From positions 43,588,001 to 43,652,000 of the forward strand of contig NW_024704742.1 in NCBI RefSeq assembly GCF_018977255.1: DNA of 64,000 nt, read 5' to 3'. Source of the DNA: Callorhinchus milii. Its lineage: Eukaryota. Both the position numbers and the translations under genes were made by a program. The notes under the pieces were generated by a model. The model was given only the letters and a program-made list of their open reading frames with translations. It searched no databases and had not been told where the DNA came from. Shown here one piece after another: positions 2,621 to 42,131 of this stretch (positions are counted from its first letter, which is position 1; the number at the start of each line of letters is the position of its first letter).

Positions 2621-3464
2621 AAGTAATAATTTTTATTTCTCACACAAGTCATGTGAGCTGCTCAACTGGCTTACTAGGGTTCAATTTAGATTACATTTGG
2701 TTATTTTCATGCATGACGTGTACAAACTGTCCCCTTGACACTTTACCAAACTGGCTTGTTGCAAACGAAATGTAGCTTTTAGGTCCCACACCAACTGACA
2801 TCATCGATTTCTCCCTATTCCTCAGGAGCTCTTTTGTTTAAAATTAGTGTAACTAATTCCTTCTTAAAAAGTCCATCCTTGACTCTTCTAACTGTTTGCC
2901 AGACAGGGCTATTAATGACAAGCAATGGGGCTTTAGCTGGTTAAACTCCACCCCAAAGTGCGCTCTAGGTCCCCAAAGCCTTGGCTCTTGCCAACCTGCA
3001 CCAAATACTCTCTGGAATTAGGTAAGCAGGATGTCACCAGTGTTATGCAATGTGTCAGTCCCTTCAGAAGAGGAGGGAAAACCTGATGGAGTAAAATAAA
3101 TGATGTACAAATATGATCTGATTATCTTTTTGAGGGGGTTCTGCTGGGTGTCGGACATATGCTTAACAGTATCGAAACCAAACTTAGCGTTCCAGGTATC
3201 CAAGCACTCCGGGAAGCTACTCTGCATGAAGGCCGCTAAATAAATAAATGCAAGTTGTTGTTCTAGTTGAATCCCACCTACACATAGCTTCCAACTACAC
3301 AATGCCAATACTCTATCTTAATTTAGACACTTATTATTAGACACTTAGGGGCTTGGCTACGAATTTTACCCAGATCTCTCCCATTGTATAATGCTCGCTC
3401 ATGTCTCATGATGCTGCTGTGGTTGGATAACATGATTTTTTTAAAAAATCTATTCTGCCTCCTC

Positions 3465-3694
3465 CCCTCGCTCGGTTGACTAGCTTCTGGTTATGAGACA
3501 ACTGTAATTTATAAAGACCAAGTGCAGTGTGCAAACTTTCAAAGTTATATCATTCGGATCCTGCACTTACTCAGAGTTAGCCTGAGATGCCAAGTCAAGG
3601 AACAGACCTTGTCACTGAGAGCACAAACAGAAGAGATCAGTTGCAACCAGCAAACTAAAATTGGGACGAAAATGTACTTGAAATAGAATCGACA
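3465..3694 (+). promoter_or_regulatory. Conserved upstream module of copy A (promoter or 5' leader)
   Basis: Pyrimidine tract, TATAAA at 3510-3515 and ctttcaaagttatatcattcgg; homologous blocks precede all six copies. Confidence 0.5.
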
Positions 3695-4324
3695 ATGATA
3701 AGTTCAGCACTGAATATTTCACTGTTACTCAGGGCTCTTGTACGATTGTTTGCAGAGGCACGATTGCATCCTCCTGTCGATTGATGTGGTGTGTTGGACA
3801 AGGTCATGGATTATAATTTTACTCCCTGGTTGCAAACTCCCTGCTACGCTATTTGTAGAGTGAAGTCCAGCAGCACATTGCAAGCCGGGCAGCCGCACGT
3901 AGATGGATTCGATCTCTTCAAGCAGAAGTGTGAAATCGATCCTGCAAAAGGTTTCTTCCTTCTGAGGATTAGAGCCCCTGTGCAATTCGCGTCCATGAGT
4001 TCAGAAATGCGAGCCAAGGCTGCGACTCCACCGGGGGTCACTATAACCCTCTGAATCTGCCTCACCCACTTCACCCTGGAGACTTCCCCAACTTCAGGAT
4101 CAACGGTGGGAGAATTAAATAACATATCAATGCACTGCAGGTGACACTGTACGATTATTTCTCCATTGTTGGCCGGGAGATGGGGGGCTGGTGGTGCATG
4201 CGGGTAAAGATGATTTGGGCAAAGGTGGGTTTTGAGCAGTGTACATCATGGCAATTTTGGGCAGAGCCTAGCATGCTGTTCAATCAAAATCACCAGTAAA
4301 GGTTTTTGGAACACTATGATGTAA
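3695..4324 (+). pseudogene. SOD3: SOD3-like copy A, disabled extracellular Cu/Zn SOD paralog
   Basis: ATG 3695 starts a signal-peptide-like MISSALNISLLLRALVRLFAE, followed by an in-frame TGA at 3782-3784. SOD3 motifs then follow across frameshifts: YAICRVKSSSTLQAGQPHVDG, AIRVHEFRNASQGCDSTGGHYNPLNLPHPLHPGDFPNF (first Cu His->Arg), an internal TAA after GGRIK, VVHAGKDDLGKG and GNFGQSLACCSIKITSKGFWNTMM*. Confidence 0.92.
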
Positions 4325-5049
4325 ATGTAACACTATCGTTTTTCTCAAGAGGTTTTTGGTCTTTTCAATATGTTTGGAATCAGGCACTTAAAATTAAGCC
4401 ATTTCTAATTTTTTTGTGTCAAACCAATGTTTGTTTTTACAGTATCACTGTTGCCCTCTGATAATTTGTATTACTGCAAAACTTGGACAAGCAAAGCAAT
4501 CGCAGTCTTTTGTTTGGAAGATAAACTGAATTATATAAACCTTTAGTCCTAACATTGAAACTCTGAGGCACCAAAGTTATCATGATCCCATCTTTAATTA
4601 TAATTATTATTTAATTATTAAGGTAAAACTCTCATAAGCCTGATCTGTATAAATCAAATAATCGCCTGAGTCTTATATCTGCCCAAGACCCATTCAAGAG
4701 TTTATATTCTATGCAAGTTTGACATAACTCTTGCTTTGCATAATTTATATTAAATGCATGGTCCCAACTGATACAATTTATGTAAGGTTTATTGTATTAT
4801 TAGATTTAAAACCATTGTCTCGAAATGTAAGATCACCAAAATATTTGGAAAATTCATAAAATCAGTCTTAAATTGGAAGCTAGCTTTCTATTGATCTTAA
4901 AATATCCTTCACAAAACCATCTTTCAAATTAAAACTAAATGTCAGCCTTGCTCAGCTGATAGTGCTGCCCCGTGTCCTCTGAACTCTTGCTCCTGCACCA
5001 CAGGACCTTACCTTCCATATCAGAGACAACTGACAACAAAACTCTCAGT

Positions 5050-10537: not shown

Positions 10538-11158
10538 ATGAAAAGTTCTGTACTGAGAATTTCACTGTTACTCCAGGCTCTTGTGCCGTTGTTTGCAGAG
10601 GAGGAAGTGTATTTTCCTGACAATTGGCATCAATGGACCGGATTCCAGGACTCGCAAGCTCCCCGTTATGCTGTTTGCAGAGTGAAGCCCAACAATACAC
10701 TGGAAGCCGAGCAGCCAAGTGTACATGGATTCATCCTCTTCAAGCAAGTGCCTGGAAAGAAATTTGCAGAAGGTTTCTTCAGTCTGGGAGGATTCCCACA
10801 GGAACAGAGCGTGCGTTCAATTCACGTTCATACGTTCGGAGATGTGAGCAACAGCTGTGCCGATGCCGGGGGCCACTATAACCCTCTGAATCTGCCTCAC
10901 CCATGTCACCCTGGAGACTTCGCCAATTTCAGGACCAACGCTGGGAGAATTGAAGAGCATCGCACTACACTGCGTGTCACATTGTTTGGATCTTATTCGA
11001 TTGCTGGCCGAGGAGTGGTGGTGCGTGAGGGTGAGGATGATTTGGGCAAAGGTGAAGATTTGGGCAGTTTACAGCATGGCAATTCTGGGAAGAGACTGGC
11101 ATGCTGTTCAATCGAACTCACTAGCAACAGTTTATGGGACTCAATGGTGCCTGAATAA
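10538..11158 (+). CDS. SOD3: SOD3-like copy B, 206 aa, secreted, fourth Cu-ligand His replaced by Arg
   Basis: Signal peptide MKSSVLRISLLLQALVPLFA; motifs YAVC, IHVHTFGD, GGHYNP, HPCHPGDF, GRGVVVREGEDDLG and GNSGKRLACC. Start chosen by homology to the other copies; the ORF track opens upstream at 10343. Confidence 0.92.
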   Translation: MKSSVLRISLLLQALVPLFAEEEVYFPDNWHQWTGFQDSQAPRYAVCRVKPNNTLEAEQPSVHGFILFKQVPGKKFAEGFFSLGGFPQEQSVRSIHVHTFGDVSNSCADAGGHYNPLNLPHPCHPGDFANFRTNAGRIEEHRTTLRVTLFGSYSIAGRGVVVREGEDDLGKGEDLGSLQHGNSGKRLACCSIELTSNSLWDSMVPE

Positions 11159-17026: not shown

Positions 17027-17758
17027 ATGATGAAACGCTCAAGGCTGAGCTTCCTGCTTTTACTCGGGACTCTTGTGCAGTTGGTTGCAGAGGTGCAAGG
17101 TGGACCAATTTTCAAAGTTGGAAGACGTGTACTAGGTGGACGATTTGGAATAGGTGGACGATTTGGATCAGGTAGACAAGGTGGAGGAGATCTCTTAATC
17201 TCCGGACTCAGTAACAACAGTGATCTATTGTTCAATCCTCTTCTTGCAAAGAATCAAGGCCCTGCATACGCCGCATGTAGAATAATGCCAAGCACCACAC
17301 TCAGAGCAGGCGAGCCAGCCATAACAGGATATGCCGTCTTCAAACAAGAAGGACCAAAATCCCAAACAGAGGGCTACTTCAAATTGCAAGGATTTCCTGC
17401 AAGCAGCAGCAAGCATCCAATGCATGTCCATGAGCTTGGATTCTTGTGCGATGGCTGCGTCTCTACTGGGGGTCACTACAACCCCTTCGGTACAAGCCAC
17501 CCCAATCACCCTGGAGACTTCAACAATTTCGAAATAACTGGTGGGACAATTACAAAACGCCTCACTGGTCTCAAGGTGACCTTGTTTGGCATTAATTCGA
17601 TTCTTAGCCGAAGTGTCGTCTTGCATAATGGTGTGGATGACTTGGGACAAGGTGGGGATAGTGGAAGTCTTCAGCATGGAAACTCAGGGAAGCCTATAGC
17701 GTGCGGTGTCATCAGAGTCAGTAATGCTCAGTTTTGGAATTCTATAGCTACTATGTAA
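17027..17758 (+). CDS. SOD3: SOD3-like copy C, 243 aa, secreted, Gly/Arg-rich N-terminal insert, catalytic Arg replaced by Pro
   Basis: Signal peptide MMKRSRLSFLLLLGTLVQLVA; motifs YAAC, MHVHELG, GGHYNP, HPNHPGDF, VVLHNGVDDLG and GNSGKPIACG. AATAAA at 17833 and 18155. Confidence 0.93.
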   Translation: MMKRSRLSFLLLLGTLVQLVAEVQGGPIFKVGRRVLGGRFGIGGRFGSGRQGGGDLLISGLSNNSDLLFNPLLAKNQGPAYAACRIMPSTTLRAGEPAITGYAVFKQEGPKSQTEGYFKLQGFPASSSKHPMHVHELGFLCDGCVSTGGHYNPFGTSHPNHPGDFNNFEITGGTITKRLTGLKVTLFGINSILSRSVVLHNGVDDLGQGGDSGSLQHGNSGKPIACGVIRVSNAQFWNSIATM

Positions 17759-18819
17759 CTGACTGTCAGACTTTCATTATTAGCTTTCTTTAAAAAAATT
17801 GACCAAGTCGATTCTTTTTTTTGGGGGGGGGCAATAAAAGTAAAACCACTCCCAAATATTACATGTAATGTGTACCCTTACTGTAATGTTTCACTGTCCG
17901 GTGGTAACTTGTAATCCCCCAGGACATTGGTAAAATAATTCCAATCTCTGGTTGGATAGAAATATTTGGCTATGCATTTATTTTTATCCACATATTGCAA
18001 TCAATAGAAGTAGTCCTATATGTAACTTTTATATAGGAAGCCTCTAGAAAATATTGAGATTCTGTAGTTATAATCTTATTGAAAGAGGAAAATCCATCCT
18101 CAATAGAGTCCTTGTTTTTTTTCTTATGTAGTTTTGCTCTCCACATCCCATGTCAATAAAAAGCCTACAGGACATTTAGTGTTACAATACTGGCCACAGA
18201 AGGAAAGTTTCATAATAGAAGATTTATTTATATAATGAAATTTAAATCACAGACAAACAAGCAGCTGTTTGCTAGACGAGCTGAATGATTGAAGTTGTTA
18301 CATTGTGCATGAAGATAGCTGCCGTGATTCCTTCTGGAGCGTGAAACTTTATGTCGGGTGCAAACAAATAGATCACCTGTAAAACAATTAGCAATACAAT
18401 ACAATGTAAAACAGCAGAGGTGATCAGCTAACTAGAACTTTCAGTTATTTTCTCTCATCTTATAATGGTAATAATTGATTTTATTATTGGACTAAATTTA
18501 AATTTAATAGCAATGTATGTATGATATGTAGAGCTGTAATTACAATTCACAGATGACTGATGGGCAACTTCCCAAAGCAACATTAATCAATAAATCCTGC
18601 CTTGAAACTGTTACTTAGCCCATTGCTATCATGGAAATTGTCAGGTCTGTTCCTTGACAATTTTGTTTATAGACCAGGATGGGGACATATCGTATCTTGA
18701 AATTGGCTGATATGGAGCAGGAAGCCTCTTTTAAACTAATGGTCTTCATCCCATTGGCAGGGAGATGATGATATAAGGGAAGAAAACTGAAATCCAAAAT
18801 TAGAGTAATAATCCACGAT

Positions 18820-19350
18820 AATAATAATCTTTGCATTTGATACAGTGCCTTGGGACGTCTTCCCGACGTGAAAGGTGCTATACAAATGTAATCTTGTTGT
18901 TGTTGTCTATCATGTCTTCGAGACTTCTCAAAGCGAGTCACAGAATTGATTGTTTATTTTGTGGGTGAAATGCAGCAGCCAATTGCACAAAGCAGTGTCC
19001 CACAAACAGTGGTGGATTGAGTGAACAATTTTTTTTAAGGAATTATTACCACCGGAAAAGCGATCCGCCAATCGACTAACAATTGGGTTCCTACTTACAG
19101 CTAGGTAAACATAGGCGTGTGGAGTAAGGAAACTTGCCTAAAGTTTCGCCCTGTACACATTTACAGGAATTGCAAATGCAGCCTTATTAATAATTTATAC
19201 AAAGTGAGAATATCTTGTTTCAGTATATGAACTTGATGCCTCTCTCTGACTCAATACTTGATGCTTCTCTCTGAATCAAACCCAGGTCTTTTGCTTGCGA
19301 GGCGAGCGCTCTAACCACTGAGCTAGAGCATTCCACATGTGAGCTACAGG
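18820..19350 (-). mobile_element. tRNA-derived SINE, composite or interrupted copy
   Basis: Same body as 49965-50277 (cagccaattgc...cccacaaacagt); tRNA-like head at ~19275-19350. Confidence 0.7.
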
Positions 19351-20259
19351 ACTCCACATACGACTCGCATGTGGAGATCTCTGATATTCAATGTTAATTT
19401 TCAAATAGGTTAAAAGCTATCTCTTTAATAATAAAGCCTCTTGAATTTTCTTTTGCTCTTCTTTGGTCTTCCCCAAAATGATTGAGAACCCATTTTAATA
19501 ATAATAATAATCCTTGCATTTGATATAGCGCTTTTCACGTCGGGAGGACGTCCCATAGCACTTCACAGAACACACTGTAAAGTGAATTGACTGTATATTT
19601 GTGAGCGAATGCGGCAGCCAATTGCGCACAGCAATGTTCCATAAACAGTCATGGATAGAAAATCACCAATTTATTATTGTTTTTGGTTTTGGAGGGATTA
19701 TTTTAGCACAAAGCCCACATTAATTTGTTCACTACATTTGTGTCACAGTTTTGACAATCAATGTCTTGCCAAAACATCTCCTCCAAGTGGTCTCAACATA
19801 TATGGTTCCAGCCTCATTCACTTTGGGAACATGCCACTCAACCCCAATTTATACTGGACTTTCGCAGCAAATTACCGCCAGTAACACAATACGAATGAAG
19901 CATTTATAATAACATACAGAGATAAACATTTATATTTAGAAAAGCACCTATAAGATGCAATCCAAAATACAATACAAAATTACATTTGTAAAGCGCTTTC
20001 ACATCAGGAGGATGTCCCAAGGCACTCGAAGGTTATACAAATATGTTTAGCACCAATCATTTGGAATTTTATTTGTAAGCAGTATTGGAATTAATACCCA
20101 ACCCAACAAAATGCCATGACTTTAATTGCAGCACAGCATTTTTTGGTATATCTGTCAATCCTTCATACGTTTCTTTGCTCTTCTACAGCAACCATTTTAA
20201 TTATGAATGAAAATCAATTCACTTGTGAGGCGAGCTTCCCCCATATCTCCTCAGAGCTT

Positions 20260-21300
20260 CCATTTATATGATGCCCTTCACATAGAATAACATCTCAGAG
20301 AGTTGTTCAAAGAGGCATTGGACATGGAGCAAGGAAAGGTAAAGTGGTTAGGGAAAGGGAAATATGATCGTAGGTTTAATCGAAGAGATAGACTTTAAGG
20401 TGGACTTAAAGAAACAATTAAAAGACAGATAGAGGGAAAGCAAAATGGAGAAGTAGAGAGAAAGAATTCTACAGGTTTGGGGTGGAGATTTGACCACCGA
20501 TGGTGCTTGGTGGCATGCAGTATGTCTGATTTAGTCAAACAGAAAGGACGAGTAAAGGAGTTGGGGTAGAGGTAGATCAGAGGGATATTGAGGTGCTAGG
20601 GAATGAAGGGAATAGTATGTGAGGATGAGGATGGTGAAATCAATTTGCTGTGAGCTAGGGAGCCACGCAAGGACTGGAGTGAATGGACATGCAGAGTTTA
20701 GTATGGGTGAGGATTCGGCAGTAGATTTTTGAAAACTTGCAGCTTACACATGAAGGAGAAATGGAGCCCATCAGGCAATGCACTTAAAACGTCTAAATCA
20801 AAGATTACAAAGGCATAAATAAGAGTTTTGGCATTTGGTGTGAGATGGGGTGGAGGTTAGTAGGTCAGTAATGTAACTGAGGTGGAGAAAAGCAATCTTG
20901 GTCAAGGGATTGGATGCGATGGAGAAAGGAAAGCTGAAGATCAAACTGGACAACAAGGTTACTCAATGTTTCAGTGAGTTGCAGAGAGAGAGGCCTGGAA
21001 GTTTGAAGACATCAGAGCCAGATTTGAGGAAATGTTGGTGGCAGTCAAATAATATGACTTCTGCCTCATCCATGTTGAGTTGCAAGAAACTGTGCCTCAT
21101 CCAGGCCTTGACGTCTGACAAGCAAGTGGATAGAACATATAGGATATCAGTGGACTTGGTAGCAAAGTAGAAATGAAAATCATATTTGGGTGTCAATCTA
21201 TATACATGTGGAAGTTAATCTTGTGCCTGAGGATGATGTTGCCAAGAGGGAATATGTAGGAGAGAAGGGAGTATGAAGGAGGAGGCTGAGGATAGAGGAC
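20260..21300 (-). mobile_element. Old L2 LINE fragment
   Basis: ORFs 20963-21196 and 21193-21408 (CLSDVKAWMRHSFLQLN; PLGNIILRHKINFHMY). Confidence 0.8.
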
Positions 21301-21654
21301 TCTGCAGCCTCTATCTAGGAGGCAAAATGGAAGCGGTGTTTCAGGCAGACTGGAAACCAGGAAATATGCAGTCCCATGAAGGTAACCCATACAAAAAACC
21401 ATCACCATCCTTGAGTTTCAAACCAAACTGAGAATTCCATATATCCACATATACATAGAAAGTCCAGAGATGCTTATTGGAATATAATAATAATAATAAA
21501 TAAATAATAATAATAATAATCCTTGCATTTGATATAGCAATTTTTACGTCTCAAAGCGCTTCACAGAATATACTGTAAAGTGGATTGACTGTATATTTGT
21601 GGGTGAAACGTGGCAGCCAATTGCGCACAGCAGTGTCGCACAAACAGTCGTGGA

Positions 21655-22537
21655 GAATGCACACTCTCAACCTAAAGAGATGTATCCTGCTTAACTAATT
21701 CTGTAAAGTATTAGGCGCAGGTTGGCAAAAGCCCAGGCTTGGGAACCCCAGATTGTGTGTTGGGGTAATACTGGAATCTAACCACCTAAATTGACATAGG
21801 TTTAGCTGGTTAGCTGGCACCATTGACAGCACTGCCTGGCAAGCTTTCCTGCTGCTTGTCCAGTTGGGACCACCATCTCCCTGATGGCTTTGGCTTGCAG
21901 GTTTAATGGAATTGGGAAGAGTCCCTGCCCCAGGGACTGGTCTGTCCTTCCAAATCCTGCCGATAACCCAGGCTGTCCTGTCATCAGTAGTGCTAGATCA
22001 GCTTTAAAGAGACCTGGCTTACCTCCCGTCCTCTTCAAAGATGATAGGCACTAGTTGGTCATATGACATTCCTGGTCCCTGCCATCAAATTCTTAAGGGT
22101 TTGACCCATCATTAGGTGGATGGTAGGTACCAGGAACTCCCTGTAAGTTTCCCAGTGGTCAACACAGCTCAACATAAAATGTGTGAGAGCATTGCCACAA
22201 TCTTCCTGCCCAGAGGTCAGACATACATCCCTTTCAATTGAGTGATTGAAAGTGCAGATCTTAAGCAGCAGCTGTTTATCTCTCTGCAAACCAATCAAAG
22301 TGGCGCTAGTTGTATGAATGCGTATTCACAAACCAGGACTCCAGGTAATACCTGCCCGCAGCTGTCGCTCCAAACCTGTTTACTCATCAGATATCTGATG
22401 GACTTCTGCCTTCAGTGTATTGGGAGGACTTTTACAAGTCCTTGTGATGTGCTAGCCATCTTGATATTCCGACGTCCCCAAGTCCAATGCTGCGTACCAG
22501 GTTTATTCATCACCAATTGCTTAATCCAAGTCCTCAA
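21655..22537. repeat. Unclassified dispersed repeat; related copies at ~280-445, 2900-3020 (inverted), 42830-43200, 45430-46430 and 55930-56230
   Basis: Shared words such as aaagtattaggcgcaggttggcaaaagcccaggcttggg, tttggcttgcagg, gactggtctg, gtaggtaccaggaactccctgt and aattgcttaatcca. Confidence 0.7.
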
Positions 22538-24660
22538 TAACAACAACAAAAACAACTTAGATTTGTATAGCGCCCTCCACGCCGGATGGCGTCTCAGAGC
22601 GCTTCACAGTAACGGATCCCGGGGTGCGCCAGGGTAGGGGTGGGAAGGTGACCAAAGGTGCAGTCAAAAAGAAAGGTCTTCAGCAGGGACCTGAAAACAG
22701 GAAGAGGGGGGCAAGCCGAAGGGAGTGAGGAAGGGAGTTCCGGAGCTTCGGGCATAGTGGCTGAAGGCACGGCCGCCGAGGGTGGAGCGGAGGACTTCGG
22801 GGACGAGGAGGAGGCCAGACCCGGAGGAACGAAGGCAGTGGGTACTGTTTTGAGGAGAGAGGAGGCAGAGAGTGGGATACGCAGTCAGTGCAGTCTGCCA
22901 AGGACTGGGGTGATCGGGGAACGGAGTTTGGTGTGGGTGAGAATGCGGGCGGCAGAGTTTTGAATGATCTGGATTTTGTGGATGATAGTGGATGGGAGAC
23001 CGGCGAGGAGGGCGTTAGAATAGTCCAGCCGAGAGGTGACAAAGGCATGGACCAGGGTTTCAGCGGCTTTCGGAGAGAGGTATTGGTGGAGACGGGCGAT
23101 GCGTCGGTGGTGGAAGAAAGCGGTGCTGGTGAGGGACCAGATATGGGGGAGGAAGTGTTAGAATTTACACTTTTTGTATAATGTTAGAATCATAGTAGAT
23201 GTTGCGAACGGGTTAACTTGTAAATTAAGCGTGGGGGGCAACTGGACTGACAGTCATGGGATAGGACACATCTGGTTTTCTCTGTTTTTGAAAGAATAAC
23301 CGGAACAGCTTTGGAAAAGGGCAGGGGGTCACCTCTTATCAGTAAATGACAACAGGCCCACAGAGGTAATGGTCCAAGGTACCGGTCGACACAGGATCTC
23401 GACTTAGCAATAAGTCGCTAGATTCTGACAGGGCCAAGCGACAGAAGGCAACCCTCAAGAATAGCAACTAATGAGCAAGTTGCTTAAACTAAAGAACCTT
23501 GGTACCATCCCGGGATACTGATAAGAAATAACCAGTCACTTAAAAGGAATGTACTAATGATCCCACCTAACGAAATAACGAGCATCAGATAACAGGGGTC
23601 TTAAGGACAATGTGTATGTGTGCTGAGGCACGTACACCCCATGAGGTGTGCCCAGCATGATTTTCGCCAGGTGACCTAATGTCCGCACCATAATTGGATG
23701 GACACAAGCTTAAGACACCGTGCCAGACCAAGATTGGGGCGCCCAGGACAGTACCTATCGTGGATGGAAGACTGAGATCTAGAAGGCAGAAGTAGACGAC
23801 CACGAGGGGGGATTACGCGGTAGTATTGTTCTGTTAGTGAATTGATTGATTGTGCTTACTTCGGGAACTTGGACGGATCCTGGAGTTTAATAAACACACT
23901 CTGGTTGCAAACAGTGGCTGTGTTTGATTGGAACTCGAAAAGGTTTTTTTTCTTAACAGAAGGATAATTGGGGGTCAAACCTGACGCCTAGGTTGCGTAC
24001 GGGCTCGGAGAGTTTTAAGTGGAGGTCGGGTAGGTGAAGGAGGTGAGAACCATGAGATTTTAGATGTTGACGGGAGCCAAAGAGTATGGCTTCCGTCCTG
24101 TCAACGTTCAGCTGAAGGAAATTTGTGCTCATCCAGCTCCTGAGGTCTGACAGGCAGGCTGACAGAACATCAAGGGACTGGAGGTTGCAAAGAGAGGTAA
24201 AAAATAGAGTCGGGTGTTGGCCATATACATGTGGAAATGCACCCCATGTCTGCGGATGACATCCCCAAGAGGGAGCATGTAAATCAGAAAGAGGAGGGGG
24301 CCAAGGATGGATCCTTGGGGTACCCCGTAGGTGACCGGGTGAGAGCGGGAGGAGAAGCCATTTGTGCAGATGTACTGCTGGTGGTTTGTGAGGTAGGACT
24401 CGAACCAGGCGAGTGCGGTCCCACTGAGGTGGATGACAGAGGAAAAGCGGTGGAGGAGGATGGCGTGATCGACTGTGTCGAATGCCGCGGAGAGGTCCAG
24501 GAGGACAAGGAGGCAGAGGGAGCCCTGGTCACAGATAGAGAGGATGTCGTTTGTGACTTTCACAAGTGCAGTCTCTGTACTGTGGGCACGGCGGAAACCA
24601 GATTGGAGGGGTTTGAAGAGGGAGTGGGAGGAACGGTGTGCGCGAAGTTGGTTGGTAAAT
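22538..24660 (-). mobile_element. L2 LINE fragment interrupted by a solo LTR
   Basis: ORF 24129-24563 ([26 protein letters not shown]); the reading FDPQLSF|LPHI continues across the LTR; (AAC)n tail at 22538. Confidence 0.9.
23156..23958 (+). mobile_element. Solo LTR, 803 bp, from an ERV or Gypsy-type element
   Basis: TGTTA...TAACA termini, 4-bp TSD GAAG (23152-23155 and 23959-23962), AATAAA at 23889-23894, and clean interruption of an L2. Confidence 0.88.
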
Positions 24661-25300
24661 GAAGTGCTTTGGCAAATGGATGCTATGAAGCCAACTCTGT
24701 CTCCAGGGTGCTCAGCGACAGGTCAGTGTAGGCCGGAGACCTCCCTTCCTGTAGTCACTTCTCACGTTTACCAGAAATCCACCTCACTGCTTGATACTGG
24801 ACTTTGTAAATGGGCTGGAGGAAGCCCCTCTGCTGTACCCCCAGGAGCTCAGATCCATAAAGAAGGACTGTTTGTACACAGGTCTTATATATACCACAAG
24901 CGTGACCTGCATTGGGACTTTGCTGCCCTTGAAGAGAGACAAACATGACCCGAGTGCCCTTCGCCCCAAGCAAAAATTGGTGTCCACCACAACCTCCAGC
25001 TACTAATAAGATTCAACAATTGGAACTAATGCCCCTTGTATCTCCAATCAACACAACAACAACAACAACAAATTACGCTTGTACATCGCCCTTCACTTTG
25101 GAAATACACTTGATGTCTTCTCTTGAGCCATGCAGAATCATAATTCTGCACTTAGGGGATCTACCACCATGTCCCACCGAGGGGTTGCAATCCCAGTGCT
25201 CTTTTTGGAATCCCAAAAGGGAACCTCAGAGAGAAGCTCAGACGGTACCTTGCAGGGAAGGTGCCCAGGTTGTAGTGGACTAAGAAGACCTGCCCTCCCC
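24660..25300 (-). mobile_element. Old non-L2 LINE fragment, post-RT region
   Basis: ORF 24755-24973 IYKTCVQTVLLYGSELLG...VQYQAVRWISG resembles a LINE RT C-terminal region. Confidence 0.6.
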
Positions 25301-25469
25301 TTTTGTCCAAGCTCAAGTCTTTACACAATCCCCAAATACCCAAGATTCTGCAGGGAGCAGGGGCAGGACAGCGCGGGGAGGAGCCTGGGCCTACCTTCTC
25401 AGGTACTATAAAGCACGAGGCGGCAGGGAGTTCAGCTAGGGTGTGGGGGGTGGGGCTGTGGGTGTGTGT

Positions 25470-27273
25470 GGGGGCGGAGCGTGGTCACTCCCATTCCAAC
25501 TTCCACCCACCCCCCACCCCTTCCCTCCCATACTCCGACTCCTACCCATCCTCCCCTACACACCTTCGAACCCGTTTCCCCACCCTCTGTCACCAAACTC
25601 ATCCTGTCCCTGAAACCCACCACCTGCTCCCTTGACCCCATCCCCACTCCACATCTCTCAACTCCACCCCCTTGCCCCACTTATCACAGACATCATCAAC
25701 CTGTCCCTCTCCTCTGGCTCTGTTCCCATTCCCCTAAAAACTGCCATCATCACTCCCACTTTGAAAAAACCCTCCCTTGATGCATCACAGCTAACAAGCT
25801 ACCGGCCCATCTCCAACCTCCCCTTCCTGTCCAAGGTCCTTGAAAGAGTTTTCGCCTCCCAGCTGCGCTCTTTCCTCTCCAACCATTCATTATTCGAACC
25901 CCTTCAGTCGGGTTTCCGTGCTGCCCATAGCACAGATACCGACCTGGTCAAGATCATCAATGACATCTTGACCATCTGCGACCAGGGCTCCCTCTCCCTC
26001 CTCGTCCTCCTCGACCTATCGGCAGCATTCGATACAGTCAACCACGCTATCCTCCTCCACCGCTTGTCCTCCCACCTCAACCTTCAAGGCCCTGTCCTTA
26101 AGTGTTTAGGTCGTACCTCTCCCATCCTCTTCATTTTGTTTCCACAAACGGCTTTTCCTCCACCCCCGCACTGTCTCGTGCGGTGTCCCTCAGGGCTCTG
26201 TCCTTGGTCCCCTCCTCTTCACCCTCTATATGCTCCCCCTTGGTGACATCATCCGCAGACATGGGGTTAACTTCCACATGTATGCGGATGACACCCAACT
26301 CTACCTTTCCTCCTCTACCCTCAACTCCACGACCACCGATGTCCTGACAGTCTGCCTGTCCAACATCGAGTTCTGGACGAGAGATAACTTTCTTCAGCTC
26401 AACGTGCGCAAAACTGAGGCCCTCCTGATTGGCTCACGTCAGCGCCTCCACACCTCAGGCGCTGACAGCATCAGCATCCAAGGCTGCACTCTCCACCTCT
26501 CAAAGCCGCTCAGGAACCTCGGGGTTCTGTTCGACCCTGAGCTGTACTTTCTTCCTCATATCCGCGCCACAACTGGCACCGCCTTCCATCACCTCCGAAA
26601 CGTCGCCAGACTACGGCACTACCTCACCCCTCACACTGCTGAAACTGGTCCACGCCTTTATCACCACAAGGCTGGGCTATGGGAACTCTCTCCTCGCCGG
26701 CCTTCCCGGCACCTCCCTCCACAAGCTGCAGGTCATTCAGAACTCTGCAGCTCGTGTACTGTCCCGCACCAGGCTTCGGGACCACATCACTCCCACCCTC
26801 GCTCGCCTCCACTGGCTCCCCATCCCCCAGAGGATCGAATTCAAGATCCTCACCCTCACCTACAAGGCCATTCACGACCTTGCTCCCTCCTATCTCTCCG
26901 ACCTACTATCCACCTTCTTACCTGCCCGTACCCTCCGTTCCTCTGGCTCCGGTCTGCTCCACATCCCCCGCCCCAACCGCCCTACCATCGGTGGCCAGGC
27001 CTTCAGCCTCTCAGCCCCTAGGGTCTGGAACTCTATCCCCCAGTGCCTTCGCCGCTTCCTCCCTTTCCTCCTTCAAGGCCGGTCTCAAGACCTTTCTCTT
27101 TGACCGTGCCTTTAGCACCCTCTCGACTCTCTACAACCACCTCGCTCCCTTCCTTCCTTCCCCTCACCCTGACCATTTCCTCCCTGCTCGGGTCCTGATC
27201 CAACTGTCCAGCGCCTTGGGATGTCCTCCCGACGTGAAAGTCGCTCTATAAATGGAATTTTGTTGTTGTTGTT
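25470..27273 (+). mobile_element. L2 LINE, 5'-truncated, relatively well-preserved RT with frameshifts
   Basis: ORFs 25632-26246 ([33 protein letters not shown]), 26230- ([10 protein letters not shown]) and 26429-27103; (TTG)n tail. Confidence 0.93.
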
Positions 27274-27274
27274 G

Positions 27275-28380
27275 ATTCCCTTCAACAAATCCTTGGATTT
27301 TGGGATCGCAGGATTGCAGCCCATAAATGCACTTTGTGGCCCAGTGTTCAAGCTGGCGAATGCAGCACAAAAGGTCCCCAGGTGAGTCCACCAGCAGCAC
27401 AATATCATCTGCAAACAGAAGCGCCGCAACCTTGTCAGAAAGGCTTGGATCAGATACACCCAAGACCTTCCCCCTCGATGCCATCCAACATGTAATTGAT
27501 GAATACTGTAATTAATAGAGTGTGTAACAATGGTCAGCTTTGCCTTACCCCTGTTTCAATAGGGATGGGCTCAGTGAGTCAACTCTCAACCCTTACATGC
27601 CGCGCCTTCAGCTCCCCTCTCGACTCTCTACCCCCTCCTCGCTCCCTCCCTTCTCTCCCCTCACCCTGACCATTTCCCCCCTTGCTCGGGTCCTGACCCA
27701 ACTGTACAACGCCTTGGGACGTCCTCCCGACGTGAAAGGCGCTCTATAAATGGAATCTTGTTGTTGTTGTTGTTGTTACATGGATCTTGGAGCTGGAATA
27801 CACATTCTTGATAAATCCAAGATTTTACCATGTACTCCCATGCTTTCTCGTTTCATCATGAGGGCCTCATGAGGTCAAAAGCATTGCAGACGTCAATGAA
27901 TGCAACATAGGTGTATTTCCAGTTAGCCTTCTAATGTTCTGCAATCTCAGACATATCCACAACCTGCCCTATATATTCCTCGTGAGAACAGAAACTATCT
28001 TTTCATTCCTGATCAAATCATGAGTCTCCAGTGTGTGTGATACATGTGCAGTGATCGTCCAAATCACCACTTTAAGAGCAACTGAAATCAATGAGATCCC
28101 TTCTCAGTTCTCGATGTCACTAGGGTGACCCTTCGTGTGGATAAAAAACAAAATTGCAATTGCTCTCTAGAACACTGACAAAGTGTATGCCTCAGAGAGA
28201 GTCCTGTTGGCCAATGTTAGGAGGGCAGTTCCAAGGGCAGCATAACCATTCTCGATTAATCCCCTCGGAGCAGCTTTTAGAAATTCAGCATTAATACCGT
28301 CCATAGCTCTTCAGGGGTGAGTGCCTTGCAGCTTCAGTTTCCTTATGACGTCAGCTGTAAGAGCAAGAAACCCCTTGGCT
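27275..28380 (-). mobile_element. Old non-L2 LINE RT fragment with a short nested L2 tail at ~27585-27777
   Basis: ORF 27164-27484 VAALLFADDIVLLVDSPGDL carries an RT FADD motif; likely the partner of 24660-25300. Confidence 0.65.
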
Positions 28381-28419
28381 ACATCTGTGTGATCACGCAA
28401 ACCCGAGGACTGACGATGA

Positions 28420-28970
28420 AGGTAATGAGGGACAAAAAGTGATCAAAGAGGATAAAATAGTCAATAGTGTCAAAAGCGGATGAGAGGACAAGGAAAACAA
28501 GGTGGCAGAGGGTGTCTTCACCGTAGAGGTAGAGTACATCATTGGTGCCTATGATGATGGCTGCCTTAGGGCTATGGCAGGGTGGAAAACAGACCAGAGG
28601 GGCTACAGCAGGGAATGGAGGAAATGTTGAGAGCGGAACAGAGGAGCAACAACACATTCCAGGACTAGGAAAGGTAGATTGGAGATGGGCTGGTTGTTGA
28701 AGAGTTTGTAAGGATCAAGGGTAAGTTTTTTGAGGAGGAAATGATGACAGCAGTTTTGAAAGGAAGTAGGACAGTGCCAGAAGAGAGAAACAGGTTGATA
28801 GTATCTGCTAGCAGGGGGCATAGGTGGGGCAATTCGGTGGTTAACATCTAGGTGGGGATCAAGGAGTTGGTGGTGGGTTTCATGTTGGTTATCAGTGTGG
28901 AAGAGGGGCAGTGTAGGAAGATGTAGGGAAAAGGGTGTGATGAAGAAAAGGCAAGACGAGGAAAATGGCA
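28420..28970 (-). mobile_element. L2 RT fragment
   Basis: Encodes QPISNLPFL and LVLSSAFDTID. Confidence 0.75.
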
Positions 28971-29469
28971 ATTTAGCTTCACTTTACCTCCCTGACGCCC
29001 CCTTCTCCCCACCCCAACATTGAAGGACAGTCATAATTTGGTAAGGCTTTCTTCATTTGTACCTCTTTTGAAATCTTGTGAAATGCTTTCTAGTTTCATT
29101 CCAGCCGAGAATGAATCTTAATATAAATTCTTTCAAAGAAGCCTAAGTTCACTGGTATCACATACTACTGTTGTGGACTGCATAATTCCATTGTACACTT
29201 TTATTTAAACTTACCCTTTGAAACTCTAAGCTTTGGAACTCTCTCCACCAATCCCTCAACAGTGGGCCCTCCTTTCTCTCTTTTAGATTACAATTGAAGA
29301 CCTTCCTCTTCGACCATGCTTATTGTTACCCCTTCCCTTTCCCTGGTTCAACGTCAGGCTCTGCCACTGTTAAGGTAGATAACACACTCCGAGACACTGC
29401 CCAGCAAACAGAGCGCTTTATAAATTCAAGTTGTTGCTGTTGAAGGAAAACCTGATGGAGTAAAATAAA

Positions 29470-29778
29470 TGATAATGATAATAATAATAATCCTTGTATT
29501 TTGTATAGTGCTTTTCACATCCTCTAGACGTCTTAAAGAGCTTCACAGAATATACTGTAAAGTAATTGACTGTATATTTGTGGGCGAAATGCAGCAGCCA
29601 ATTGCACACAGCAGTGCCCCACAAACAGTCATGGATTGAGTGACCAATTTGTTATTGTTTTTTTTCTTAAGTGATTATTATCAGTCGTGTGGAGTAAGGA
29701 AACTTACCCAACATTCGCCCTGTCAGGAATTGAACCCAGGTTTCTCGCTTGTGAGGTGAATGCTCTAAACACTGAGCA
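29470..29778 (-). mobile_element. tRNA-derived SINE, near full length, upstream of copy D
   Basis: Same structure as 49965-50277. Confidence 0.85.
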
Positions 29779-29989
29779 AATATGATGTGATGATCAGGCT
29801 TCACACAATACCAATATCTCTATTTAATAATAATAATAATCCTCGCATTTGATATAGCGCTTTTCACGTCGGGAGGACGTCCCAAAGCACTTCACAGGAC
29901 ATACTATGAATTTTACACAGATATCTCCCCTTGTACATTTCTCAATCATGTCTCACAGTTCTGCCTTGGTTGAATAACAAGTTTGTTTC

Positions 29990-30233
29990 AATTCTGCTCT
30001 CACACGGTTGACTAGCTTCTGGTAATAAGACAACTGTAATTTATAAAGACCGAGTGCAAATAAACTAAGTGCAGTGTGCAACTTTCAAAGTTATATCATT
30101 CGGACCCTGCACTTACTCAGAATTAGCCTGAGATGCCAAGTCAAGGAACAAACCTTGTCACTGAGAGCAAAACAGAAGAGATCAGTTGCAACCAGCAACT
30201 ACAATTGGCAAGATTTGCCCCACAATAGAACGG
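29990..30233 (+). promoter_or_regulatory. Conserved upstream module of copy D, near-identical to that of copy A
   Basis: cggttgactagcttctgg...TATAAA (30042-30047)...gttgcaaccagca matches 3473-3652 closely. Confidence 0.5.
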
Positions 30234-30887
30234 ATGATGAAGAGTTCCCCTGGGAGTCTGCTTATTTCACTCGGGGCTCTGGTGCTATCTTATGCAGGGA
30301 TACGAGTGGGTTGTCTACCAGATCCCTTCGCGGGTGCTGGGATTCCTTTGGAGATAGTGTTTAATGAGCTTCTTGCAAAGAATCAAGGCCCTGCGTATGC
30401 TGCGTGTCGAATGTTTCCTAACAAGAATTCCCAACCTGGTCAGCCAAGGATCACAGGACACGTTCTCTTCAAACAACTAGATCCAAAAAGCGGTGTAGAA
30501 GGCTATTTCAACTTGCAAGGATTTCCTTCTAGCAGCATCAAGCATCCAATGCATGTCCATGAGCTCGGATCTGTGTGGGACAGCTGTGAATCCACGGGTA
30601 AACACTACAACCCCTTCAATACAAACCACCCCAATCACCCTGGAGACTTCAACAATTTCGAAGTAACTGGTGGGAAAATTGTTAAACGCCTCACTGGTCT
30701 CAAGGTGACCTTGTTTGGCATTAATTCAATTCTTAGCCGAGGTGTGGTCTTGCATAATGGTGTGGATGACTTGGGACAAGGTGGGGATAGTGGAAGTCTT
30801 CAGGATGGAAACTCAGGGAGGCCTATAGCTTGCTGTGTCATCAGAGTCAGTACAGTTGAGTTTTGGAATTCTATTGCTTCAACTTAA
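30234..30887 (+). CDS. SOD3: SOD3-like copy D, 217 aa, secreted, catalytic Arg replaced by Pro
   Basis: Hydrophobic N-terminus MMKSSPGSLLISLGALVLSYAG; motifs YAAC, MHVHELG, GKHYNP, HPNHPGDF, VVLHNGVDDLG and GNSGRPIACC. The 3' half is nearly identical to copy C. Confidence 0.93.
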   Translation: MMKSSPGSLLISLGALVLSYAGIRVGCLPDPFAGAGIPLEIVFNELLAKNQGPAYAACRMFPNKNSQPGQPRITGHVLFKQLDPKSGVEGYFNLQGFPSSSIKHPMHVHELGSVWDSCESTGKHYNPFNTNHPNHPGDFNNFEVTGGKIVKRLTGLKVTLFGINSILSRGVVLHNGVDDLGQGGDSGSLQDGNSGRPIACCVIRVSTVEFWNSIAST

Positions 30888-31671
30888 CCAAGTGTCAGAT
30901 TTTCATTATCGGCTTTCTTAAGAAATTATCAAATTCATAGATTTACATAGACTGTATGACACGGAAAAAGGTCATTAAGCCCAAAACAGCTGGCGCTGGT
31001 GTTTACTACCCCACAAATCTTCACCCACTCCTTACTTTGTTCCGTATCCTTCTATTCCCTTCTTTGGCATTTGTATACCGAGTTTCCTCTTAAATACATC
31101 TATAATTCGGTTTCTTTTCTCTTCTCATTAGCTGCTAAAATGAAACATTCGCAGATGTTATGTGTAATGAGTACCTTATTGTCTCACTGTATTCCAATGA
31201 TAACTTGTAGTCCCAGCACTTCAGTAAAATAATTTCAGTTTTCCTCAACGAAAGATGCTTAATCATGAAATTGCTTTTGTCCGTGCATTGGAAATGCCAT
31301 CTATCGTCCTAGATTTGATTGTAAAACATATGCACTTGCTATTGGAAATCTACCCTTTTGCTGATTAGCCTATTATTTTGGAAATGGAAAGCTCAACCCC
31401 ATTACAGCAGTTTATATGAGATATATTTGTCTTACAAAACTGGTTGCTGCACAAACAGTTTTGTAGCATAAACTAGTCTTGAGGTGATTCCGTCTAGAAT
31501 GTGAAATATTACAAAAGTCAGTCTCCTAGGCAGACAAATGCATCACCTGTAAAACAGTGAGAGTGATCAGCTAACTAGAAATGTCATTGTGTTCTTTTCT
31601 CTCATCTGATAATGATAATCATTGATTTTACTACTGGCAGCATTGTCACCTCCCCAATGTTATAACAATTG

Positions 31672-31930: not shown

Positions 31931-32694
31931 TGCCACCACATCTTCAAAACTACCATTAGAAATTTACAGGGCAGGAGAAGGCCATTTGTCCCATTGAGTC
32001 AATAATGTCAGTCTCCCCTTTCAAGAAAGTATAACTGGACTCCTTCATGTTTGTGAAATACCACCCCATTTCCAAACTGCCCTTCCCTTCCAAACTTTCC
32101 TAGTTTCACTCTTACCACCATCTTCACTTTGTCTCTTCCGATAGCTTCTTCTCCTATCCTCTGCACAGTCACATCCAATAGCGTCTTCTTCTATCCTCTG
32201 TCCTAAGTTCTCTACACTATCTATATGCTCCTCCTTGGTGACATTATCTGTGGGCAAGGGATCCACTTCCACATATATATGGATGATACCCAATCTATCT
32301 CTCTGCCCCAACCCAATTCAGGGATACCGCTGTTTAACTCATCAACTGTTCTGGATGAGTTTTATATTTCTAAAGCTCAAAATTGATGAGACTGAGGCTC
32401 TTCTGGATGGGTCCAATCAGAGCGTATTTATTATATTATCCTTCCTTCCCTTCCTTAGTTGAATAACTTTTGGGGAAAAAAAATGCAATTTATAAGGAGG
32501 CCAAGAGGAAAAAAAGTAGAGAGCGCAACTTTCAAAGTTCGATTTCTGCACTCAACCACATACAGTTGGTGACCGAGATTCTGAGTCACAAATTTCACCT
32601 CATCATTGATTTACCAAACAATTTCTCGAACAGAGGAAATCAGTTGAAATCTGCAAACCACACTAAATTATTTGCTGCTGAAATAAAATCAACG

Positions 32695-33085
32695 ATGAAA
32701 AGTTCAACATTGAGTTTTATTGCCTTTATTTGCATTTCTTGTGCTGTATTTGCAGAAGTGTGAGGGCATTCTTTTGCAGATCTGGTGAACAAAGCGATCA
32801 TCAAAATCTACACACAGAAGTACAACAAACCGATCTATGCTCGGTGCAAAAATAAAGTCCAGCAACAACCTCGATCTAGGATAGGGTTCTTTTCAAGGAA
32901 GATTTTCCAATCAGCCCCATACAGGATTTCCAGCAGGGAGAAAAAAATCTCCAATAGAGTACTTCAGATTCATGCATTTGGCGATCCGAGTGAATGACTG
33001 TATACGTCCAGTGGTCTGTGGTACAACTCTTTTAGTTTGGGCCACCTTTATTCACTTCAGAGACACGTCCAATTTCACATCGAAG
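32695..33085 (+). pseudogene. SOD3: SOD3-like copy E, heavily decayed and 3'-truncated
   Basis: Same leader as the other copies (tttgctgctgaaataaaatcaacgATGaaaagttca), then MKSSTLSF... with TGA at 32761-32763. Residual frameshifted motifs: KPIYARCK, VLFKED, GFPAG, IHAFGD and GLWYN. No recognisable DDLG/LACC region. End coordinate approximate. Confidence 0.8.
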
Positions 33086-33574: not shown

Positions 33575-34685
33575 AAACAGCAACTACAACAACAAAATTA
33601 CATTTGTATAGCATCGTTCACGTCACGAAGACCATAATCAAAGGTACGGTCAAAGAGGAGGGTCTTAAGATGGGTCTTGAAGGAGGCAAGGGAGGGGGTG
33701 AGGTGGAGGAACCGCAGAATGGAGTGTCAGAGGGTGGGACTAGAGGGAGGGAACGTGACGTAGATTGGAACCAGCTGAGTGGAGGGAGCGAGCAGGATGG
33801 TAGGGGGTTAGGAGGTCACAGAGGTTGGGGAGCAAACCCACGGACAGCTTTGAAGGAAAGGACCAGGATCTTGAACTGTATTCTCTGCGATGACAAGCCA
33901 GTGGAGTCGGGCGAGGATGGGGGTGATAGGTTCACACAGCCTGGTGTGGGAGAGGACATGTGTTGAGGAATTATGGATGATCTGCAGCCTACGGAGGGAA
34001 GAGTTGGGGAGGCTGACAAGGAGTTTGCATAATCAAGTCTGGATATTATAAATCCATGTATAAGGGTTTCAGTAGCCTGCGGTGTGAGACAGTGGCAGAG
34101 TTGGGCGATGTCGCGGAGATGGGGGAAGGCAAAGCGGGTCATGGCACGGATATGGGGTAAAAAAGATAGTTGAGGATCAAACAAGGCGCCAAGGTTCCAG
34201 ACTGGCTTAGTAAGGCGGAGTGTACATCCATGGATGGTGATGCTGTCAGCCCCTGAGATGTGGAGGCTCTGACGGGAGCCAATCAGGAGAGCCTCAGTCT
34301 TGTTGACGTTCAAGTGAAGAAAGTTAGCTCTCATCCAGGACTTGATGTCTGACAGACATTCTGTCAGGACAGCAGTGGTCCAGGAGTCAAGGCTGGAGGC
34401 AGAGAGGTAGAGTTGGGTATCATCCGTATACATGTGGAAATTGACCCCATGTCTGCGGATAATGTAACCAAGAGGGAGCATATAGATATTGAAGAGGAGG
34501 GGACCAAGGACAGAGCCCTGAGGAATCCCGCATGAGGCGGTGCGGGGGCTAGAGGAGAAACTGTTTGTGGAGATGAAGTGGAGACGGTGTGAAAGGTAGG
34601 ATCTGATCCATTCAAGGACAGAACCATGAAAGTGAGTTGAGAGGACAGGCGGTGGAGGAGGATAGAGCGGTCAACAGTATTGAAC
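33575..34685 (-). mobile_element. L2 LINE fragment
   Basis: ORF 33816-34481 HMYTDDTQLY...IKSWMRANFL...SRLDYANSL. Confidence 0.9.
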
Positions 34686-41474: not shown

Positions 41475-42131
41475 ATGAAAAGCTCAGCATTGAATTTGTT
41501 GCTCTTACTGGTGGCTTTTGTGCAGCTATTTGTAGATGAATCAGAGTGTTGCCTTACCAACCACTGCAATAGGAAGAGGATTAATGATTTAACTGTCCAT
41601 CTGCTTCACCCATTAAGACCCCAGAGAAACCAGCCCACGTATGCCGTGTGTACAGTGAATCCAAGCAACACACTCAGATCTGACCAACCAGCTATAACAG
41701 GACGTGTTCTCTTCAAGCAAGACCATCCAACCAGCACTGTGGAAGGCTTCATCAACCTGAGCGGATTTCTAAGGCACCAAAGTTTGCATGCAATTCACGT
41801 CCATAAGTTCGGAGATCTGACCGATGGCTGCACCTCCACTGGTCCTCACTACAACCCCAATGGTGTGAACCACCCACTTCACCCTGGAGATTTCAACAAT
41901 TTTGCAACCAAATCTGGAAAAATTGTCCAGAGTCTCTCTAACCTCCAAGTGACGTTATTTGGATCTCGCTCGATTTTGGGCCGTGCGGTGGTAGTACACG
42001 CAGGTGAGGATGACCTCGGCACAGGTGGTAATGAGGGAAGCCTTCTGCATGGAAATTCTGGAGCGAGACTGGCGTGTTGTACAATCGGACTCAGCAAAGC
42101 TGACCTTTGGGATGCCACTGTGCACCAATGA
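41475..42131 (+). CDS. SOD3: SOD3-like copy F, 218 aa, canonical extracellular Cu/Zn superoxide dismutase, probable ortholog
   Basis: Signal peptide MKSSALNLLLLLVAFVQLFV; IHVHKFGDLTDGCTSTGPHYNP, HPLHPGDF, SILGRAVVVHAGEDDLG and GNSGARLACCTIG. All Cu/Zn ligands, the catalytic Arg and both Cys pairs are present. It is the copy nearest CCDC149. ATTAAA at 42258. Confidence 0.95.
   Translation: MKSSALNLLLLLVAFVQLFVDESECCLTNHCNRKRINDLTVHLLHPLRPQRNQPTYAVCTVNPSNTLRSDQPAITGRVLFKQDHPTSTVEGFINLSGFLRHQSLHAIHVHKFGDLTDGCTSTGPHYNPNGVNHPLHPGDFNNFATKSGKIVQSLSNLQVTLFGSRSILGRAVVVHAGEDDLGTGGNEGSLLHGNSGARLACCTIGLSKADLWDATVHQ

Follow-up and report, generated by a model that had tools for sequence, protein, structure and literature searches.

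Two tandem SOD3 paralogues of Callorhinchus milii with proline at the catalytic arginine position and all seven metal-ligand residues retained

Layout of the SOD3 cluster

The window considered here is a stretch of 64,000 nucleotides from the elephant shark, Callorhinchus milii (assembly GCF_018977255.1, contig NW_024704742.1, forward-strand positions 43,588,001 to 43,652,000); coordinates below are counted from its first letter. A six-frame motif scan and tblastn uncovered a tandem, same-strand cluster of Cu/Zn superoxide dismutase (SOD) genes, each made of a single open reading frame (ORF). Copies B, C, D and F were open and copies A and E were broken. Copies C and D, the subject of this work, display proline in place of the catalytic arginine (Arg143 of SOD1) and retain the seven residues that bind the metals.

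17027..17758, + strand: copy C, open SOD3 paralogue of 243 residues; N-terminus hydrophobic, all seven ligand residues present, Arg143 replaced by Pro
30234..30887, + strand: copy D, open 217-residue SOD3 paralogue with seven ligand residues and Arg143 replaced by Pro
41475..42131, + strand: copy F, canonical 218-residue SOD3 with 37/37 near-invariant residues; Arg198 is AGA at 42066-42068
10538..11158, + strand: copy B, open 206-residue SOD3 paralogue; the Cu ligand equivalent to His120 is Arg (CGT 11024-11026); catalytic Arg present, preceded by Lys
3680..4327, + strand: copy A, SOD3 pseudogene interrupted by stops and frameshifts, recovered by tblastn as pieces in different frames
32670..33000, + strand: copy E, broken remnant of the 5' part only, with ATG at 32695, an early stop and frameshifts

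All four open copies passed the Pfam Sod_Cu cut-off (28.9), C with 96 bits and D with 92.2 bits, and Sod_Cu was the sole Pfam family detected in these two. The closest solved relative was human extracellular SOD3 (2jlp, E 2e-47 by sequence), and the top homologues of the cluster copies were all named SOD3. F grouped with records that come from C. milii and bear the name extracellular SOD; the partner of D was a UniRef entry of the same species. Judged by homology, this is a SOD3 (PF00080) cluster of elephant shark.

No entry for the exact B and C proteins was found in the protein collection searched. UniRef entry A0A4W3I5C3 is a chimeric gene model, composed of the 5' part of B and the 3' part of C.

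Replacement of the catalytic arginine

The two substituted codons are the following.

17693..17695, + strand: Pro codon of C, CCT, Pro223 at the Arg143-equivalent position
30822..30824, + strand: Pro codon of D, CCT, Pro197 at the Arg143-equivalent position

C reads GNSG-K-P-IAC, with AAG (17690-17692, Lys222) ahead of CCT, and D reads GNSG-R-P-IAC, with AGG (30819-30821, Arg196) at the same place. The corresponding two codons are GCG AGA in F and AAG AGA in B, AGA encoding Arg. SOD1 residue numbers were transferred via an aligned SOD1 chain. Alignments to human SOD3 (2jlp) and to SOD1 chains ran without a gap across the loop and the proline is therefore the Arg143 equivalent; the alternative that a shifted register or a faulty alignment puts Lys/Arg142 into the pocket was rejected, as no alignment displayed a gap. 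Sequence, codons and ungapped register thus agreed with the original prediction that C and D carry Pro at the catalytic Arg and keep the seven ligand residues.

That prediction had also dismissed a sequencing error, which was confirmed here. Contigs from two of the four sequencing runs containing C, all four from one study, were compared to D. In run X1, a D-type contig matched D without any difference over 30774-31000. A C-type contig of this run departed from D at nine positions over 30774-30878, equal to the count of C/D differences in that interval, none of them in the codon. Run X3 supplied one contig across the codon, with five differences to D that likewise lie outside it. The same Pro codon in contigs of two other runs excludes a sequencing error. 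These contigs carried a few other letters outside the codon; mosaics of C and D letters over 30626-30830 were seen in both runs, may result from assembly collapse and were not taken as alleles.

Rarity among homologues

The family alignments, which had been proposed as a check, yielded no proline at this site among close homologues or among distant domains with seven ligands. Among 168 homologues (62 matches for C and, for F, the best 120 of 419; 10 rows that belonged to the window or to other C. milii sequences were excluded), the Arg143 equivalent was Arg in 167, Lys in one and Pro in none. The only Lys belonged to the SOD3 of Narcine bancroftii. A more distant set was built from 143 new cluster representatives (best 150 of 3251 profile matches), in which 246 domains were aligned and 194 spanned the site. 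The 174 of these domains with seven ligands displayed 157 Arg, 12 Lys, five other residues and no Pro; the single Pro among the 194 belonged to a domain devoid of His120. A predicted SOD domain with seven ligands and no Arg is rare (5/174), not unique.

Two candidates were discarded on the way. Amblyraja SOD3 was set aside as an example of Arg loss, because the Leucoraja sequence in its cluster is intact. An apparent link between Asp at the Thr137-equivalent position and Arg loss (5/6 versus 10/202 domains) was dropped, three of the five being poorly aligned domains of two multi-domain proteins.

Among the matches listed from the open-access literature, no paper dealt with this cluster or with a natural Arg143Pro SOD. 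One shark SOD3 figures in a tree in PMC10416458, the available passages of which do not describe the cluster.

A single event in sister copies

In a tree of 43 sequences, C and D formed sister copies (support 100/100) on a stem of 0.66. B, C, D and F grouped at 91/89 beside shark and ray SOD3s, in a tree that has no SOD1 outgroup and with support below the starred level; this suggests a SOD3 expansion in the chimaera lineage. Protein-set searches returned no orthologues from other chimaeras, a blank which does not show absence.

Synonymous differences between C and D were unevenly distributed, affecting 17/45 codons in the 5' core and 4/77 in the 3' part. Synonymous distance (dS) was 0.85 in the former and 0.12 in the following tract.

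17477..17755, + strand: homogenised 3' tract of C (codons 151-243; partner D 30606-30884), containing the Pro codon, Gly114 to Ser and Gly150 to Arg

The breakpoint was picked by eye after viewing the data (longest-run permutation p 0.006). The 3' halves of C and D were probably homogenised by gene conversion. By this pattern and by the tree, the change from Arg143 to Pro arose once and is common to both copies by descent and probable conversion. Two independent losses were ruled out by the sister grouping and the homogenised tract. The sharing of the change by two genes, put forward in the original prediction, stands insofar as both genes display it, and falls insofar as it represents one event, not two. 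The Pro codon lies within the homogenised tract and can therefore only be dated as older than the last homogenisation.

Ligands, cysteines and other substitutions

The ligand residues are His133/135/150/158/161, Asp164 and His200 in C, and His107/109/124/132/135, Asp138 and His174 in D. Both copies display the core cysteine pair equivalent to Cys57/Cys146, whose bond is predicted (Cys144/Cys226 in C, Cys118/Cys200 in D), and an intact Asp124/125 and electrostatic-loop motif. Near-invariant sites were retained at 33/37 positions in C and 34/37 in D; at other sites, identity to F was 56/125 and 53/125, respectively. Of the features of an active Cu,Zn SOD, the ligands and core cysteines are present in C and D and an Arg or Lys at the Arg143-equivalent position is absent.

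Several further positions were altered.

17417..17443, + strand: changes in C, Pro131 at the SOD1 Gly44-equivalent and Phe139 at the Asp52-equivalent position (Pro105 and Ser113 in D)
17120..17197, + strand: C-specific insertion of 26 residues (about residues 32-57), Gly/Arg/Phe-rich with repeated GGRFG units, of low confidence in the model

The Gly44 equivalent is Ala in 165/168 homologues. D displays Asp191 at the Thr137-equivalent position (30804-30806), at the channel entrance, and Lys123 at the Pro62-equivalent position (30600-30602), each found in 0/168 homologues; C has Gly at the latter. Both copies display Gly114 to Ser and Gly150 to Arg, within the 3' tract. Asp52 (Phe in C, Ser in D), Gly114 and Gly150 are thus all changed; these positions are tied to SOD1 dimerisation (PMC8247289; bioRxiv 10.64898/2026.07.15.738613). 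Rays and catsharks with intact Arg also vary at Asp52 and Gly150, which makes the dimer face non-diagnostic and rules out that such changes are specific to C and D. In rays, the Asp52 equivalent is Val.

The cysteine set of C differs from those of D and F: the C-terminal CC pair has lost its second Cys (17705-17707; Cys in 166/168 homologues) and Cys141 is gained (17447-17449).

The insertion of C follows the hydrophobic leader and is absent from B, D and F. Mature C is cationic (isoelectric point ~9.5, net charge +7). Neither C nor D displays a basic C-terminal tail, which is also absent in F and in most shark sequences examined. The N-termini of both contain a hydrophobic 11-mer (mean 2.5) and a predicted N-terminal helix, features read from hydrophobicity and models.

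Activity and fold

Arg143 orients and hydrogen-bonds superoxide and connects the electrostatic and disulphide loops (PMC8247289, PMC6383938). In a variant map of human SOD1 (PMC12696502, mmc2.xlsx), in which nonsense changes are set to 0 and synonymous changes to 1, p.Arg144Pro (Arg143Pro) displayed an activity of 0.02±0.38 and an abundance of 1.09±0.05, and was deleterious in the activity map only. Other changes of Arg143 scored -0.11 (Ile), -0.47 (Ala), 0.11 (Gly), -0.34 (Val), 0.09 (Asp) and 0.47 (Lys) in activity. Further substitutions of the type encountered in C or D were also covered by this map, with activities of 0.41±0.26 (Gly44Pro), 0.27±0.28 (Asp52Ser), -0.56±0.96 (Asp52Phe), 0.50±0.25 (Gly114Ser), -0.21±0.35 (Thr137Asp) and -0.07±0.63 (Gly150Arg). 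By analogy, the dismutase activity of C and D is very probably strongly cut. The original statement that loss of this arginine sharply lowers activity was borne out for human SOD1, in which Arg143Pro combined null-like activity with normal abundance, and likely applies to C and D.

The AlphaFold model of D had a mean predicted local distance difference test score (pLDDT) of 86.1 and superposed on the 2jlp chains at 1.0-1.4 Å root-mean-square deviation (E 2e-20). Core blocks of the C model displayed pLDDT values of 90-97, and the last core strand begins at the Pro in both models. These models derive from alignments of normal SOD3s, are biased to that fold and speak at the level of the backbone only; according to them, the fold of C and D is likely stable.

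Compensation and new chemistry

The original prediction left room for compensation by the preceding Lys/Arg. Position 142 is Arg or Lys in 126/168 homologues, and in B, beside the catalytic Arg; it is therefore a background feature and no compensatory change. As the register is not shifted either, compensation by this residue appears unlikely. The Lys of D at the Pro62-equivalent position might help activity.

Residual catalysis could nevertheless be under selection, C and D being slow but useful SODs that work at a few percent to a third of the normal rate, partly via nearby basic residues. Such an explanation would fit the intact ligand residues, core cysteines, Asp124/125 and electrostatic-loop motif, as well as the existence of the five Arg-less domains among the 174, which include SOD3-like proteins of two pipefish (Val at the site), and the residual activity of neutral Arg143 mutants. 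It is nonetheless unlikely: apart from the background nature of Lys/Arg142, human SOD1 gains no activity from a Lys or Arg placed at 142 (0.64 and 0.85; PMC12696502), C lacks the Lys of D at the Pro62 site, and D adds an Asp at the channel mouth.

Peroxidase activity had been suggested as well. In the bicarbonate-dependent peroxidase reaction, carbonate is held in place by Arg143 and Thr137 (PMC3439438); a gain of such activity is therefore disfavoured. More generally, an opened Cu channel could allow C and D to act on neutral or bulky substrates as peroxidases or oxidases, given that Arg143 and Thr137 restrict the size of anions reaching Cu (PMC8247289), that shifting Arg143 exposes the Cu site (PMC6383938) and that several channel-side residues are altered together. 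New redox chemistry of this kind is highly improbable: the known peroxidase reaction relies on Arg143 itself (PMC3439438), nothing points to any such substrate, and non-synonymous change (dN) does not exceed synonymous change on the C/D stem (omega 0.56).

Selection and decay

Between C and D, the 5' core displayed a dN/dS of 0.33 (Fisher p 0.0003). A free-ratio codon model over the core gave omega values of 0.59 for C, 0.50 for D and 0.56 for their stem.

The reading preferred here, developed below, is that C and D are folded, secreted copies weakly kept for a non-catalytic role, and several results weigh against it. In the 3' tract, which contains the Pro codon, dN/dS was 0.72-0.84, not distinct from 1 (p 0.46 at 0.72), and the older purifying signal may predate the loss of Arg. 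In a maximum-likelihood branch test, neutrality of C and D was not rejected over the core (p 0.067), the 5' half giving p 0.027 and the stem p 0.17. The test has low power, because F itself reached only p 0.08. Losing three to four of the 37 invariant sites would spare all seven ligands by chance in 41-52 % of cases. No AATAAA or ATTAAA was found in the 900 bases downstream of D. On the side of activity, Leu144Ile (1.02, neutral) and Pro62Lys (0.72) are mild in the SOD1 map (PMC12696502). The map itself covers single SOD1 changes in yeast, is CCS-dependent and has large errors. The substitution needs not abolish catalysis entirely: purified Arg143Ile retains about one tenth of the activity. 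As its score in the map is null-like, null-like does not mean zero.

The chance estimate of 0.41-0.52 also disposes of ligand retention as proof of selection, including selection for metal loading.

These observations lead to the possibility that C and D are decaying duplicates, that is, SOD3 copies which were under selection until a recent change of Arg143 to Pro was spread by conversion, and which now drift like A and E. The cluster, with its two broken copies, follows a birth-and-death pattern, and both the relaxed 3' tract and the chance level of ligand retention are compatible with decay. In substitution-only neutral simulations, an ORF of the length of C stayed open in 32 % of cases at distance 0.05. 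When the retention of 14 invariant residues was added to the open ORF, however, survival dropped to 5 % per copy at distance 0.05 and 0.03 % at 0.15; decay is therefore plausible only if the loss of Arg was recent. The Pro codon differs from the AGA of B and F at all three positions. Other changes that lower activity (Gly44 to Pro in both copies, Asp52 to Phe in C and to Ser in D) are located beyond the 3' tract, and the D-type contigs of X1 and X3 had no frameshift among their listed differences. Taken together, decay seems rather unlikely.

Among the runs listed as containing C there was no RNA run. Presumed RNA runs carried no weight either way: compared to D, run X5 yielded one 170-base contig at its start, possibly from DNA, and run X8 yielded none.

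Comparison with known systems

C and D resemble vertebrate SOD3 (2jlp) in their short Zn loop, seven ligand residues, core cysteine pair, hydrophobic N-terminus and fold, and nest among cartilaginous-fish SOD3s. They differ from it by Pro instead of the catalytic Arg, by changed Gly44, Asp52, Gly114 and Gly150 equivalents and by the missing basic tail; in C, moreover, the CC pair is reduced by one Cys and the Gly/Arg-rich insertion is present.

In their mode of action, C and D would be most like the SOD-fold pseudoenzymes. Domain II of CCS is likewise a derivative of the SOD fold without dismutase activity, with a preserved Zn site and an altered Gly150 equivalent (PMC13017621, PMC6383938). 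CCS, in contrast, has lost a Cu ligand, is cytosolic and carries extra Cu-binding domains, whereas C and D display all Cu ligands, no additional domain and an apparently secreted nature. B, through loss of His120, is closer to CCS in this respect. Oyster dominin and Cu-less CSRP are secreted animal SOD-like proteins devoid of SOD activity that exist beside an active extracellular SOD (PMC13017621); they have no intact Cu site, whereas C and D lost the Arg instead. Leporipoxvirus pseudo-dismutases are also inactive SOD homologues and compete for copper delivery; unlike the predicted secreted C and D, they are viral and intracellular, and they bind CCS (PMC7605207).

The pipefish proteins of Syngnathus scovelli and S. 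acus (XP_049576348.1 and XP_037118156.1) share with C and D the seven ligand residues and the absence of Arg at the site. They display Val, not Pro, and form a long branch within the teleost clade, and their origin is therefore independent of that of C and D.

Other features of the locus

The region upstream of pseudogene A (3357-3664) was 81-88 % identical to that upstream of D (29904-30208); the coding part of A was closest to B (72 %), unlike its D-like upstream region. This mismatch suggests further exchange between copies. Decayed reverse-transcriptase fragments were encountered between the SOD3 copies (24132-27100 and 33819-34481), along with many dispersed repeats. A Pfam scan of 33 other window ORFs recovered reverse-transcriptase pieces in four and nothing else. 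No further SOD copy was found past F (42200-64000), and the ORFs scanned in that part gave no Pfam match. The window contains two N bases, at 40421 and 60072.

Proposed role of C and D and significance

At about even odds (roughly 0.5), C and D are SOD3 copies that derive from one mutation, fold and are secreted, act slowly or not at all, and are weakly kept for a non-catalytic role. They would represent sister copies within a tandem SOD3 cluster specific to the elephant-shark lineage, in which Arg143 was presumably changed to Pro once, the change then reaching both copies by descent and by conversion of their 3' halves. Their proteins are predicted to be secreted, to adopt the SOD3 fold and to be able to bind Zn and probably Cu, as far as their residues indicate. 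Without a guanidinium group to steer and hold superoxide, they would be slow or near-dead dismutases, as the equivalent change in human SOD1 suggests, and normal extracellular SOD activity would be provided by F. The likeliest role of C and D would be to carry metal or to attach to anionic surfaces, which would fit the cationic Gly/Arg extension seen in C. That their ORFs are open while A and E have decayed supports this reading.

Two other C. milii sequences also depart from the catalytic set. B lost the His120 equivalent (Arg) and kept Arg143 and the Zn ligands; its Zn loop contains one additional Cys. It represents a different path to the loss of catalysis within this cluster. UniRef entry A0A4W3IAE3, a very divergent SOD3-like paralogue outside the window, displays Ser at both the His120- and Arg143-equivalent positions.

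The four Zn ligand residues were kept in B, C, D, F and A0A4W3IAE3. Among these five open C. milii SOD3-like sequences examined, only F displayed the full catalytic set.

A bolder and improbable extension would be that, repeatedly in fishes, SOD3 duplicates became secreted non-enzymes with a full set of metal ligands, C and D acting as extracellular copper carriers or as CCS-like partners of F. The cases counted under it would be C and D with Pro, the pipefish proteins with Val, and B and A0A4W3IAE3 through loss of His120. The notion of a partner stems from C and D having lost Asp52 and gained Arg at Gly150, both of which F keeps in their original state, an echo of CCS contacts; human CCS holds SOD1 through Arg-to-Asp52 contacts (PMC6383938). 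If true, vertebrates would possess a class of proteins that regulate SOD or shuttle copper outside the cell. If C and D are decaying duplicates instead, they would illustrate ordinary birth-and-death evolution.

In contrast to CCS domain II, dominin and Cu-less CSRP, which lose Cu ligands, C and D are predicted secreted vertebrate SOD3s which lost the docking arginine and kept all ligand residues beside a normal sister gene. Counting ligands and relying on database names would overstate the number of active SOD genes, and C and D together with F would offer a natural side-by-side test of how the Cu,Zn site functions without Arg143.

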